Of a DNA stretch of 28,641 nucleotides, positions 23,896-28,641 are shown piece after piece (position 1 is the stretch's first letter; each line of letters opens with the position of its first letter). Origin of the DNA: a virus (lineage: Duplodnaviria > Heunggongvirae > Uroviricota > Caudoviricetes). The stretch lies in IMG/VR virus record IMGVR_UViG_2802429249_000009; one strand, 5' to 3'. The position numbers were made by a program, and so were the translations under genes. Under the pieces are notes generated by a model. It did not search any database. It was not told the DNA's origin and saw only the letters and a program-made list of their open reading frames with translations.

Positions 23896-24485
23896 TGGAT
23901 ACGTTACAGGATGATTATACAAAATTGTTGTATGACCTGATGCCGCCGGGACCTGCATGGTCAGATACCGACGGTGTACTTGACGGTCTGGCACCATCGC
24001 TTGTGCGTGTTCACCAGCGGGCTGATGAACTGGTGATTGAAATCGATCCCGGTCAGTCCACAGAGCTGATTGAACGTTATGAAGAATTGTATGGTTTACC
24101 TGATTCCTGTTCCCCTGTCGGAACCCAGACATTACGCCAGCGTCAGCAACGTCTTGAAGCAAAAGCCAATGTGGCTGGTGGCATAAACGAGCAGTTCTTC
24201 CTGGATCAGCTTGAGGCGCTGGGATATACCGGCGTAACGATCGAACAGTTCCAGAATCTGGACGCAAGCCCCGATCCGGAATGGGGTGATCGCTGGCGTT
24301 ATTTCTGGCGTGTGACGTTGCCGGTGGATGCCGGTGCTCAGTGGCAGACATGTACGGATGCCTGCAACACACCGATTCGGACGTGGGGCGATACGATTGC
24401 GGAGTGCGTGATTAATAAATTATGTCCGTCGCATACCGTTGTTTTATTTTCCTATCCAGATGAGGATGAAGATGCACAGGATTGA
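23895..24485 (+). CDS. Tail protein, Mu gp48-like (e14 YmfQ-like)
   Basis: 196 aa; AAGGAG RBS; precedes the tail fibre gene as in Mu/e14-type clusters. Confidence 0.7.
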   Translation: MDTLQDDYTKLLYDLMPPGPAWSDTDGVLDGLAPSLVRVHQRADELVIEIDPGQSTELIERYEELYGLPDSCSPVGTQTLRQRQQRLEAKANVAGGINEQFFLDQLEALGYTGVTIEQFQNLDASPDPEWGDRWRYFWRVTLPVDAGAQWQTCTDACNTPIRTWGDTIAECVINKLCPSHTVVLFSYPDEDEDAQD

Positions 24486-25527
24486 TACGCTGACAGCGGT
24501 AAAAGATAAGTTTGGCCCGGGCAAGAACGGATTTACTGATGGAAATCTTCGCACAGGACGTCTTGCCACCTGGCTGAACAGTGCCATGTGGGATGCCATT
24601 CAGGAGGAAATCTGTGGTGTCATTGAGAAGGCCGGGATAGAACTGAATAAAGAAGAACACGATCAGCTCTATAAAGCCATATTATTACTGGTGGGTGGTG
24701 CAATTAACGAAGAGGCATTGCTGATAAAAAATAACCTTTCGGATGTGGAAGACAAGGATGAGGCTGTTGAAAACCTCGGATTAAAACCCACGGTGGACAA
24801 GGCAAAAAATGCCGTTCAGCGTGATGGTGACACCATGAGTGGTGATTTGACGTTTGAAAATGACTCAATCCTTGCGTGGATTCGAAATACAGATTGGGCA
24901 AAGATTGGGTTTAAAAATGATTCGGATTCAGACACCGATTCATATCTGTGGTTTGAAGCGGGGGATAATGGAAACGAATATTTCAAGTGGCGGAGTAAGT
25001 CTGGAACCACAACCAAAGACCTGATGAATCTCAAATGGGATGCGCTGTATGTTCTTGTTAAAGCCCTTTTCAGTAGTGAAGTAAAAATATCTACACTCAA
25101 TGCACTGAGGATATTTAATTCATCTTTTGGTGCCATTTTTCGCCGTTCTGAAGACAGCCTGCATATCATTCCCACACGAGAAAACGAAGGGGAAAATGGT
25201 GATATTGGGCCGCTACGACCATTTTCGATTGACCTCAGAACTGGTCGCATAACTATGGGGCATGGATTAAATGTTGGTGGACAAGTGGTTCCGACAGACT
25301 ACAGCAATTTTGATGCCCGTTATAAGACCAAATCGGAAGGGGTGCAGGACGTGCGCCTTGGCGGTTATCAACAGATGGGCAGTACAGGCTCAAACCTGGC
25401 TCCCTCTGGTTATGTCAGTGTGGGTGGCTACTGCCACGGAGACTGGGATAACTCTGCCGACGGGTGGTTTATCCGACCGCTTCAGAAACTGATTAACGGA
25501 ACCTGGTATAACGTCGCGAGTATGTAA
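24472..25527 (+). CDS. Tail fibre protein (Mu/P2-type, receptor-binding C-terminus)
   Basis: ATG 24472 after GAGGA (track start 24439, same frame). N-terminus MHRIDTLTAVKDKF..; Gly/Trp-rich C-terminal tip (GYVSVGGYCHGDWDNSADGWF). 3' half is AT-rich. Confidence 0.8.
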   Translation: MHRIDTLTAVKDKFGPGKNGFTDGNLRTGRLATWLNSAMWDAIQEEICGVIEKAGIELNKEEHDQLYKAILLLVGGAINEEALLIKNNLSDVEDKDEAVENLGLKPTVDKAKNAVQRDGDTMSGDLTFENDSILAWIRNTDWAKIGFKNDSDSDTDSYLWFEAGDNGNEYFKWRSKSGTTTKDLMNLKWDALYVLVKALFSSEVKISTLNALRIFNSSFGAIFRRSEDSLHIIPTRENEGENGDIGPLRPFSIDLRTGRITMGHGLNVGGQVVPTDYSNFDARYKTKSEGVQDVRLGGYQQMGSTGSNLAPSGYVSVGGYCHGDWDNSADGWFIRPLQKLINGTWYNVASM

Positions 25528-25529
25528 TT

Positions 25530-26098: not shown

Positions 26099-28054
26099 AT
26101 GTCTGTAGTGATATCAGGTGCGCTGATAGATGGCGCAGGCATCCCCATGTCCGGATGCCACATTATTCTGAAATCCCGTGTAAATACGTCGGAAGTGGTG
26201 ATGCGCACAGTTGCTGACGTGGTAACGGGCGCTGGCGGTGAATATTCATTTGAAGCGCAGACCGGAAAATACTGCGTATATCTGAAACAGGACTGGCGCG
26301 ACGAGTACTGTGTTGGCGATATTGCTGTATACGATGACTCAAAGCCTGGCACACTGAATGATTTTCTGACCGCCCCCGATGAAGGCGACCTCAAACCCGA
26401 CGTGGTGAAACGCTTCGAGGAAATGGTGGCGCAGGCGCAGCAGAGCGCGGAAGCGGCAGCGGAAAGCGAACAACAGGCCGGGCAACATGTCGCTGATGCG
26501 CAGAAGATTAAGAGCGACTGCCAGACGCTGGCGGATAACGTACAGCAGAATGCAGAGGCCGTTGCCGAAGACAAAAAGCAGGTGGCGTTACTGGCATCAT
26601 CTGCTTCGCAGGATGCGGCCCGCGCAGAGCAGGCAGTTAAGGACGCAGACAAAATCGTCGATAAGGCTGTTGATAAACTCGGTGAAGCTGCAACGCTGAC
26701 CGGCGAGGCAAAGGCCAGCGCCGAAGCAGCAGCAAAAAGCGAGCAGAACGCGAAACAGCACAGGGACGAGGCGCAACGGATAGTTGATGACCTGAAGGGA
26801 AGCAATGCTTCCACGACAGAAAAAGGTCTGGTGCAACTCTGTAGTGATACGGATAACGACAGCGAGGAACTGGCAGCCACGCCAAAGGCTGTCAAAACCG
26901 TCATGGACGAGACGAAAACAAAAGCGCCACTGGACAGCCCGGCGTTTACCGGCACGCCCACCACGCCAACCCCGCCGGATGACGCAGCAGGCACTGAGAT
27001 AGCCAATGCGGCGTTTGTCCGCAAACTGCTCGCCGCGCTGGTTGACTCGTCCCCGGAAACACTGGACACACTGAACGAGCTGGCAGCGGCGCTGGGCAAC
27101 GACCCTAATTTTGCGACGACTGTCACTAAGGCGCTGGCGGGTAAACAGCCGCTTAATGACGTGTTAACGGCGGTCAGCCAGATAACACCGGAAGAAAACA
27201 CGCTGCCTTATTTCAGTGCAGAGGGCCGGATTTTACTGGCGCAGCTGTCAGAAAAAGCCCGCGCATTACTGGCACTGGACACGCCTGAAGCCATGCGCAC
27301 GGAGCTTGAACTGAAAGCGGCTGCGACGATGGAGCCCCAGAGCGATATCCGCGACCGCACACCAGGCAGACTGGCACTGTCCGGCATGTACGGATTCGGT
27401 CAGGCATTTGCCAGCACCGACGCTCTGGCGTTTGACGGACAGGCCGATTTTGCTGAATGGCTGAAAGAGGCCACCCCGGGGCGTTATGCGGTCAGTATTG
27501 CGGACTCTTCCACACTACTGGCAGGCACCACAAAATTTAACGGCATCATTGATGTGATGTGGTCGCCTTTTGATAACGATGAATCGGACACAACGCGTAA
27601 ATTCAAAATGCTGCTGTGTTTTAACCAGTATTACGAAGGTGAGCACAGTATTCATCGTCTGACTTACCGCTGGAGTGGAAACAACTGGAATGCAACAGTA
27701 AGCCCTGTCATTTACGACGGCGATTCGCTGGCGTTCTTACTGTCCCGGACAGCAGGCTCAGGCTCATATTTCAAATACCCGGCAGTGGGTGTTCCGGTGC
27801 TTGCTGTTTATCGCGGAACAACTTCCGGGGATAAAGAAATCAAAATTGGCCTGGGTGATGTGGTGCCAGGGTCACAACTGGGCGGAGTTAATCTTTCGTG
27901 CACAATATCTTCTGCGGGGGCTGGCTCCTACGGTTCCACACCGAGTGCAGGAGCTACAGGGTACACTTTCCCGGGGCGTTATATGGCGTTATCCGGGGTC
28001 AGGGACTCTTACGGAACAAGCGGTCGTATCTGCCTGTTTGTGCGCATCGAGTAA
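26099..28054 (+). CDS. stf: Side tail fibre protein, lambda Stf-like
   Basis: 651 aa; N-terminus and central blocks (KGLVQLCSDTDNDSEELAATPKAVKTVMDETKTKAPLDSPAFTGTPT.., LNELAAALGNDPNFATTVTKALAGKQP) closely match lambda Stf as I recall it; Ala-rich coiled region; divergent C-terminus. Confidence 0.85.
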   Translation: MSVVISGALIDGAGIPMSGCHIILKSRVNTSEVVMRTVADVVTGAGGEYSFEAQTGKYCVYLKQDWRDEYCVGDIAVYDDSKPGTLNDFLTAPDEGDLKPDVVKRFEEMVAQAQQSAEAAAESEQQAGQHVADAQKIKSDCQTLADNVQQNAEAVAEDKKQVALLASSASQDAARAEQAVKDADKIVDKAVDKLGEAATLTGEAKASAEAAAKSEQNAKQHRDEAQRIVDDLKGSNASTTEKGLVQLCSDTDNDSEELAATPKAVKTVMDETKTKAPLDSPAFTGTPTTPTPPDDAAGTEIANAAFVRKLLAALVDSSPETLDTLNELAAALGNDPNFATTVTKALAGKQPLNDVLTAVSQITPEENTLPYFSAEGRILLAQLSEKARALLALDTPEAMRTELELKAAATMEPQSDIRDRTPGRLALSGMYGFGQAFASTDALAFDGQADFAEWLKEATPGRYAVSIADSSTLLAGTTKFNGIIDVMWSPFDNDESDTTRKFKMLLCFNQYYEGEHSIHRLTYRWSGNNWNATVSPVIYDGDSLAFLLSRTAGSGSYFKYPAVGVPVLAVYRGTTSGDKEIKIGLGDVVPGSQLGGVNLSCTISSAGAGSYGSTPSAGATGYTFPGRYMALSGVRDSYGTSGRICLFVRIE

Positions 28055-28068
28055 CGAGGAAATAAAAC

Positions 28069-28641
28069 ATGAAAATCAGAGCGGTAAAAGGCATCAGAAA
28101 CGCGCATTATCTCGAAAATGGTGCGGTTGACTGCGAGGTGTTATTTGAAGGTGAAAGGGAATTCGTCCCGTATACCGCCATGCAGGACGATAGCGCCCCG
28201 ACAGGCCAGCGCATCTGGGAAGAGTTACAGAGCGGCAAGTGGGGGAAAATCGTCCCATTCACCGTCACGCCTGAACTTATCGCAGCGGCAAAAGATGCCA
28301 AACGCCAGGAAATCGAAGCCTGGCGCACAGAACAGGAGGCGCAGCCGTTCATGTTCGAATGGAACGGTCGCACCTGGAACGGTGGCCCTGACTCACTGGC
28401 CCGTCTCTATCCGGTAGTAATGGCTGCAAAATCTGATACGGCACGAACCGCCCTTGCGTGGGGCGACGCTGATAATCAACAGGTGCAACTGTCGATGCCG
28501 GAACTGGAAGAACTGGCGGCAGCAATGGCGCAGGCACAGGTCGATCGCAATGACGAGATTTATCAACGTCAGCGGGAGCTGAAGGAAGAGCTGAATAGTC
28601 TGAATGATTTGGTTTCAATCCGGGCGTTTGACGTTACGTAA
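28069..28641 (+). CDS. tfa: Tail fibre assembly protein (lambda Tfa-like) for the Stf-like fibre
   Basis: 190 aa directly downstream of the Stf-like gene; complete, with TAA at the last three bases of the window. Confidence 0.8.
   Translation: MKIRAVKGIRNAHYLENGAVDCEVLFEGEREFVPYTAMQDDSAPTGQRIWEELQSGKWGKIVPFTVTPELIAAAKDAKRQEIEAWRTEQEAQPFMFEWNGRTWNGGPDSLARLYPVVMAAKSDTARTALAWGDADNQQVQLSMPELEELAAAMAQAQVDRNDEIYQRQRELKEELNSLNDLVSIRAFDVT

Follow-up and report, generated by a model that had tools for sequence, protein, structure and literature searches.

Related Mu-type tails broaden host range in three ways: with one fibre followed by its Tfa chaperone (SfV and ST64B), with invertible fibre tips accompanied by an invertase (e14, SKA5 and 689R6), or with a second complete fibre encoded in tandem behind the first (phiP27). 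Here we analyze the fibre genes of the IMG/VR virus record IMGVR_UViG_2802429249_000009 (Caudoviricetes), a stretch of 28,641 nucleotides (nt) referred to below as the window, whose positions are used for all coordinates other than those of L-numbered loci. By its gene content the element reads as a temperate prophage whose head is of the HK97 type and whose contractile tail is of the Mu type; its integration site is ssrA. The fibre locus is probably the right end of a phiP27-like late operon, encoding two receptor-binding fibres, produced jointly and without alternation. It is an ordinary locus, a standard phiP27-type fibre region with a layout that has already been sequenced, and neither a broken or hidden switch nor a recent accident.

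The attachment domain of the second fibre has two precedents with solved structures. In Ur-lambda, the collar at the gpV/gpM junction is built from twelve copies of the N-terminal domain of the side tail fibre Stf (StfN), and four trimers are attached to it (PMC12617516). In the Vibrio myophage XM1, eighteen copies of the gp40 N-domain sit on the gp4/gp5 head-completion and tail-terminator rings of the neck and bear six trimers, each leading into a coiled coil (PMC10457771). The gene behind the second fibre belongs to the DUF4376 family, members of which have been reported as fibre chaperones (gp27 of Alteromonas phage V22 and gp9 of phage A5), with experimental evidence for this role from Alteromonas phages only.

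In the window, the fibre genes are preceded by a structural module encoding terminase, portal, S78 protease, HK97-type capsid, connector, head-completion protein and tail terminator (the head-completion and tail-terminator proteins, at 13527-13976 and 14463-15026, matching PF05521 and PF23840), followed by sheath (PF04984), tube, tape measure and the Mu-type baseplate proteins N, P, gp45, gp46, gp47/J and gp48. The window gp48 is nearly the same protein as phiP27 L53 (98.5% identity), whereas its identity to e14 YmfQ is 56%. Behind it, the region 24472-28641 holds four intact genes, all co-oriented on the + strand, for fibre 1, the chaperone Tfa1, fibre 2 and a DUF4376 protein (Table 1), bearing out an earlier description, made from the sequence alone (the sequence-only reading), of two different complete fibre-helper pairs on one strand. 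The fibre 1 start overlaps the gp48 end by 14 nt, and the three intergenic gaps measure 2, 23 and 14 nt. Only weak terminator-like hairpins of 5 or 7 pairs occur between the genes, while a 9-pair hairpin with a T run lies directly after the last gene; the close spacing and the distribution of hairpins indicate that the genes form one operon.

Fibre 1 is related to Mu S (PDB 5yvq) in three aligned stretches that include the shaft (fibre residues 79-274 with S 146-341) and the receptor-binding tip (residues 268-350 with S 424-503). As expected of a Mu gpS-type fibre, a PF02413 chaperone gene begins immediately behind its stop codon. The N-terminal ~105 residues are common to phiP27 L54, SfV orf21, ST64B Sb24, the SKA5 fibre and e14 StfP, with 49% identity to the last over residues 1-107. 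A TTG at 24439 was considered as the start of fibre 1 and rejected, as the homologues all begin with MHRIDT, corresponding to the ATG at 24472. Sequence sharing across the 80 loci described below drops steeply past ~24820. By these comparisons, residues 1 to ~105-116 constitute the putative backbone-linked attachment domain, and the remainder an exchangeable shaft and tip. Homology to Mu S, together with an N-terminus common to baseplate relatives, suggests that fibre 1 and Tfa1 make up the primary (baseplate) fibre.

Fibre 2 has its own ATG and its own PF08400 attachment domain (StfN), followed by an Ala/Glu-rich shaft, a Phage_fiber_2 motif and a distal 250 residues without a recognised fold. 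It is 43% identical to lambda Stf over residues 1-136 (aligned to Stf residues 1-129), 68% over residues 236-276 and 41% over residues 342-395, and no similarity to lambda Stf or orf-314 was found in residues 400-651. Its earlier description as a lambda Stf-like side fibre is accordingly right for the N-terminal two thirds and fails for the distal part, which matches nothing in lambda Stf. Residues 100-235 are rich in Ala, Glu and Gln and, with the lambda Stf model, point to a coiled coil. StfN matches a 94-residue chain named 'Tail fiber protein' in PDB 9e7m (E=2.2e-17), which we read as the lambda Stf N-domain because the aligned sequence equals the N-terminus of lambda orf-401, and fibre 2 residues 1-193 match the XM1 gp40 collar spike (PDB 7kjk, E=2.4e-9), whose homologous N-domain is Ig-like. 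Homologues of fibre 2 at phiP27-like and pPE4-like loci are complete open reading frames (ORFs) in 51 of 59 cases, with lengths of 420-1047 amino acids (aa) except for three truncated copies. An Ala/Ser-rich antisense ORF (26077-27201, minus strand, 374 aa) mirrors the Ala/Glu-rich shaft of fibre 2; it was rejected as a gene and is most likely a compositional by-product.

The fourth gene was described earlier as a second Tfa. Its product matches PF14301 (residues 73-177) and not PF02413, and shows no similarity to Tfa1 (BLASTP E=1.7), so that 'Tfa' is the wrong family name: each fibre does have its own helper, and that of fibre 2 is a DUF4376 protein and not a lambda-type Tfa. The DUF4376 gene lies directly 3' of the fibre 2 gene, the gap of 14 nt here falling within the -10 to +14 nt seen in most related loci. 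The family phrog_11571, a hybrid with a Tfa-like N part and a DUF4376 C part, matches both helpers of the window. By analogy with V22 and A5, and in keeping with this hybrid family, the DUF4376 protein is the presumed chaperone of fibre 2. At L053 (14528-15109), one ORF joins a Tfa-like N-terminal part to a DUF4376 C-terminal part. In an alignment from 13 loci, the DUF4376 proteins are 50-77% identical to the window protein with 51 invariant positions, a conservation that contrasts with the widely varying distal parts of the cognate fibres.

The distribution of the second pair was studied by a scan of IMG/VR with StfN residues 1-134, which matched 127 contigs, of which 80 were examined and their backbones classed by the upstream genes. 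The backbone is pPE4-like in 41 of the 80 loci, phiP27-like in 18, P2-like (Baseplate_J, Tail_P2_I, gpH N-domain, sheath, gpD) in 11 and that of a lambda-J siphophage in 4, with 6 not identified; contractile-tail backbones together make up 70 of the 80. The contractile tail of pPE4 is represented by a sheath matching phrog_205 (E=6e-54). Comparison of pPE4 with the window gave no common head, neck, sheath, tube or baseplate protein at E<1e-3, yet StfN is 95.5% identical between them, Tfa 75% and the DUF4376 protein 72%. Because of this, and because the nearest StfN alleles often lie on another backbone, the Stf and DUF4376 genes appear to be a portable accessory cassette, which these matches place on lambda-like tails and on three or more contractile-tail backbones that are unrelated to each other. 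A search of genome contigs with the gp48 protein gave only 3 distant loci (Yersinia, Pantoea), and a literature search for StfN fibres in myophages found no paper.

The same layout occurs in sequenced genomes. In phiP27, L53 to L57 follow the same order as in the window and are followed by attR. (A phage listed as 'Traversvirus P27' in PMC12502783, a podovirus related to short-tailed Stx phages, is apparently different from phiP27 and was set aside.) The four-gene layout is also found in E. coli A36, where it adjoins a tRNA-Ser gene, and in E. coli C311 at the same ssrA site as in the window. An 801-nt stretch running from the middle of Tfa1 into StfN has matches in 197 of 5426 complete E. coli genomes, and in 22 of 40 evenly sampled rows of the E. 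coli matches the match spans the junction.

In nearly all loci examined, the Caudo_TAP gene ends ~23 nt before StfN. Four P2-like loci (L088, L089 and L091 from 10001, and L079 from 6169) have the StfN fibre after gpD at the end of the tail operon, and not after a Tfa; a DUF4376 gene lies 3' of the fibre in L089 and L091, and the L079 and L088 contigs end before that point. In the four lambda-like loci (L018, L071, L083 and L093), J, lom, a lambda-type Stf and Tfa are followed by a StfN fibre of the phiP27 type, so that a single siphophage tail would need to accommodate two different collar domains. A decayed variant is found at L013 (4626-5345; E. coli E400634), in which the Stf gene has been deleted whole and a 120-nt DUF4376 fragment lies directly after Tfa; this locus also has two extra ORFs between ymfQ and the fibre gene.

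Selection on the collar domain was estimated from the first 110 StfN codons of 57 distinct alleles, for which the median ratio of nonsynonymous to synonymous divergence (dN/dS) is 0.11. Comparisons inside the phiP27-like set, inside the pPE4-like set and across the two give dN/dS of 0.075-0.082 at dS of 0.39-0.50. For 8 of 19 sequences from a phiP27 context, 11 of 41 from a pPE4 context and 4 of 10 from P2-like backbones, the closest allele that is not identical belongs to another backbone. StfN is under purifying selection, does not segregate by backbone and has not co-evolved with any one tail. The low dN/dS at this dS, together with the cross-backbone alleles, indicates that the stacking of the two modules is old and the domain constrained. 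The sequence-only reading had left a choice between dual fibres and recent module stacking, and dual fibres is the better option. Recent stacking is contradicted by the presence of the layout in phiP27 (L54-L57), in A36, in the unrelated myophage pPE4 and in 70 of the 80 loci, with StfN dS of ~0.45.

The cassette boundaries are visible in the proportion of the 80 loci with at least 75% nt identity along the window. The gp48 gene and the fibre 1 N-terminus are common to 18 loci, distal fibre 1 to 2-5, Tfa1 to 46-62, StfN to 71-75, distal fibre 2 to ~15 and the DUF4376 gene to ~39. The G+C fraction (GC) is 0.529 in the structural module, 0.459 in fibre 1, 0.413 in Tfa1 residues 1-125, 0.509 in Tfa1 residues 126-181, 0.552 in fibre 2 and 0.541 in the DUF4376 gene. 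The earlier claim of an AT-rich cassette made up of the fibre 1 C-terminus and its Tfa is only in part right: an AT-rich cassette exists, and it covers fibre 1 in full and the first two thirds of Tfa1, as the last 56 residues of Tfa1 and the downstream genes (0.54-0.55) are not AT-rich. At 25905 the GC rises from 0.413 to 0.509, the stretch from there to 26098 is at least 75% identical in 58-62 of the 80 loci, and it is at 25905 or 25935 that the E. coli matches begin, extending from there into StfN. Since these three boundaries coincide, the left edge of the cassette is placed at ~25905, inside Tfa1. The C-terminus of lambda Tfa is homologous to this stretch, which, being common to Tfa proteins including that of lambda, forms a natural anchor for homologous recombination.

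Table 1. Features of the fibre region, in window coordinates
Feature	Coordinates	Strand	Evidence and remarks
Mu gp48 / e14 YmfQ-type baseplate wedge protein	23895..24485	+	PF10076, E=1.3e-25; final backbone gene before the fibres
Fibre 1, Mu gpS-type, 351 aa	24472..25527	+	PDB 5yvq, E=1.8e-86
Putative crossover-site relic (Din-invertase position), encodes ENLGL	24763..24790	+	window GCTGTTGAAAACCTCGGATTAAAACCCACG; e14 pixL GCTCTCGAAAACCTTGGTTTGGGAGAAGGA
Tfa1, Caudo_TAP chaperone	25530..26075	+	PF02413, E=5.5e-24; phrog_136, E=1.8e-53
Left recombination anchor of the cassette	25905..26098	+	Tfa1 C-terminal 56 residues and 23-bp spacer before fibre 2
Fibre 2, Stf-type, 651 aa	26099..28054	+	PF08400, E=1.7e-61; PF03406 (Phage_fiber_2)
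StfN, N-terminal collar (virion-attachment) domain of fibre 2	26099..26500	+	PF08400, E=1.7e-61
DUF4376 protein	28069..28641	+	PF14301, E=4.7e-18; stop codon is the final triplet of the window

In the explanation that we propose, all four genes would be read from the late operon and both fibres made in every burst. The N-terminal ~105-116 residues of fibre 1 may dock on the gp47/gp48 baseplate wedge, with Tfa1 helping to fold its Mu S-like shaft and tip. The lambda-type collar domain would attach fibre 2 to the virion, and the DUF4376 protein would help its distal part to trimerise. The cassette itself may insert behind the chaperone of the primary fibre, using the conserved Tfa C-terminus and the StfN sequence as anchors. 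As for the attachment site, the fibre 2 collar could encircle the neck at its head-completion and tail-terminator proteins, in the manner of the homologous XM1 gp40 domain. The neck is likelier than the lambda site, because in a contractile tail the sheath covers the tube/tip (gpV/gpM) position. Docking at the neck is nevertheless put forward tentatively, by analogy with XM1, and we give it a little less than an even chance.

Several observations weigh against these proposals. Co-assembly of both fibres on one virion is a prediction from the genes. No sequence relation could be detected between the window neck proteins and XM1 gp4 or gp5, and StfN is closer by sequence to the lambda domain (E=2e-17) than to the XM1 domain (E=2e-9). 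The purifying selection on StfN could stem from passage of the cassette through siphophage hosts. For the DUF4376 protein, no solved relative was found with either the single sequence or a 13-sequence profile, and a single-sequence AlphaFold2 model is poor, with a mean predicted local distance difference test score (pLDDT) of 62 and values of 75-87 at residues 68-178 only. Foldseek comparison of that model with the PDB gave nothing below E=0.3; a helix-hairpin-helix likeness to prefoldin beta (E>=3) is not significant and was not used. Comparison of the window tail terminator, head-completion protein and a 197-aa neck-region protein with the PDB gave no usable match.

A different placement would keep fibre 2 on the virion and, in place of the neck, put it at the periphery of the baseplate or have it branch off fibre 1 or a tip-retained Tfa1. 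The cassette lies nearly always directly after the Tfa of the primary fibre, the Tfa C-terminus is co-conserved with StfN, and the sequences common to all backbones are confined to the fibre 1 tip, Tfa and StfN block; moreover, branched fibre systems exist in T5-like phages. However, homologous recombination explains the co-conservation equally well, the four P2-like loci with the cassette after gpD have no adjoining Tfa, and the two solved structures show the StfN domain ringing a tube-like segment of neck or tail, not seated on a fibre. We consider this placement possible but rather unlikely.

A broader form of the proposal is that Stf and DUF4376 are a backbone-independent plug-in, whose collar self-assembles around any tube-like hexameric stack, be it the tube/tip junction of a siphophage or the neck of a myophage. 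This is a speculative reading that we regard as doubtful. If it is true, one cassette gives a second receptor specificity to phiP27-, pPE4-, P2- and lambda-like virions without co-evolution, and an StfN attachment truly independent of the tail backbone would offer a ready-made adaptor for the retargeting of phages and tailocins. The structural question raised is how a lambda collar domain is accommodated on a sheathed tail, and how a single such domain can function on four tails that are not related to each other.

Alternatively, on contractile-tail phages fibre 2 and the DUF4376 protein might be passengers that came from lambdoid siphophages through recombination at the C-terminus of Tfa, and that are expressed without becoming part of the virion. 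The PF08400 fibres of isolated phages belong overwhelmingly to siphophages (316 records), the gpV/gpM collar site of lambda would be buried beneath the sheath in a myophage, and truncated or deleted copies exist. Such a history is hard to reconcile with a distribution in which 70 of the 80 loci are contractile-tail and 4 lambda-like, or with a dN/dS of ~0.08 at dS of ~0.45 within and between contractile-tail backbones and mostly intact ORFs, and XM1 provides a myophage precedent for the StfN domain. The passenger explanation is accordingly judged improbable.

Searches for an inversion switch were negative. With e14 PinE as the query, tblastn detected no homologue in the 28.6-kb window, in the 10 kb that follow it or in the full genomes of phiP27 and pPE4, while the positive control, the SKA5 invertase, was detected at E=7e-66; the absence of an invertase from the window, as stated in the sequence-only reading, is thus confirmed. 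That reading had also proposed a look downstream for an invertase. The downstream sequence was taken from Logan contig L001, which carries an identical last gene with its stop at 10573, followed by terminator-like hairpins at ~10621-10679 and by the transfer-messenger RNA (tmRNA) gene ssrA (10772-11134, minus strand), whose 3' end lies 198 bp past the last stop; smpB is next. The position of the tmRNA gene indicates that the prophage ends there, at ssrA, leaving no room for an invertase. No inverted repeats were found around the fibre cassettes, and the e14 crossover site, whose 21-nt arms are 95% complementary, has no counterpart in the window at <=3 mismatches. A degenerate half-site AAACCTCGGATT is found at 24771-24782, within the ENLGL codons, at the position of e14 pixL and of the end of the backbone-linked part of fibre 1, and no second, inverted partner was found in the window; by its sequence and position, we interpret it as a relic of the constant/variable boundary of fibre 1 and not a working site. 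The locus thus has none of the three features of the Din-invertase switch (Mu G / P1 C / e14 P): the invertase, the inverted sites and the opposite-oriented cassettes that lack N-terminal parts. The explanation that the two pairs are alternative host-range cassettes, inverted by an invertase encoded elsewhere or acting in trans, has in its favour the switch of the same-baseplate relatives e14, SKA5 and 689R6, the Pin remnant retained in ST64B and the relic in fibre 1, but is close to refuted, and hardly credible, given co-oriented pairs, a fibre 2 with its own start codon and attachment domain, the lack of inverted repeats, a second pix-like site and an invertase in the sequences searched, and a Pin-like fragment in only 1 of the 80 loci, 7.6 kb away.

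The chromosomal flank on L001 (10574-14000) contains ssrA, smpB, ratA, bamE and recN and is ~92.6% identical to the best E. coli matches; 5427 of 5428 records match it in the 90-95% identity band. Because the flank is no closer than this to E. coli, the host is probably another species of Escherichia. At the other end of the window (463-3239), genes for an HsdM-like N6 DNA methylase (546 aa) and an HsdS-like type I specificity subunit (358 aa) lie upstream of the lysis genes, and a restriction subunit was not seen with this pair.

Compared with known systems, the locus shares with the invertible e14 P segment (Pin), Mu G segment (Gin) and P1/P7 C segment (Cin) a homologous YmfQ baseplate protein and fibre N-terminus and a constant/variable boundary at the same ENLGL-coding position, and its Mu S-like shaft has ~85% nt identity to P7 Sv'. 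In contrast to these segments, it lacks the invertase, the inverted sites and the opposed C-terminal cassettes, and its second fibre has a complete gene, which belongs to another family. With lambda Stf, this second fibre shares the collar domain (43% over 136 aa), the Ala-rich shaft, the Phage_fiber_2 motif and the conserved segment 342-395, but the window tail is contractile and so hides the gpV/gpM site, the distal 250 aa bear no relation to the gp37-like Stf tip, and the helper is a DUF4376 protein. XM1 (PDB 7KJK) resembles it in having a contractile tail with receptor-binding proteins at the baseplate and a second trimer with a homologous N-domain and a long coiled coil, although gp40 ends in a tailspike and not a fibre, and its gene number is apart from the tail genes gp5-gp18 that the XM1 paper names. 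The V22 gp26/gp27 and A5 gp8/gp9 pairs likewise have a ~190-aa protein with a C-terminal DUF4376 domain encoded directly after its fibre; the fibres are unrelated and the hosts distant, and a chaperone role for the enterobacterial proteins would follow by analogy. The closest counterpart is the Stx2e phage phiP27 (NC_003356), which differs in its integration site (ssrA in the window), in carrying stx genes, which the window lacks, and in its identity of 53% to fibre 1, 68% to Tfa1 and ~28% to distal fibre 2, but whose gp45-gp48 are 98-100% identical and which has the same order of fibre, Caudo_TAP chaperone, StfN fibre, DUF4376 protein and prophage end, likewise with no invertase.

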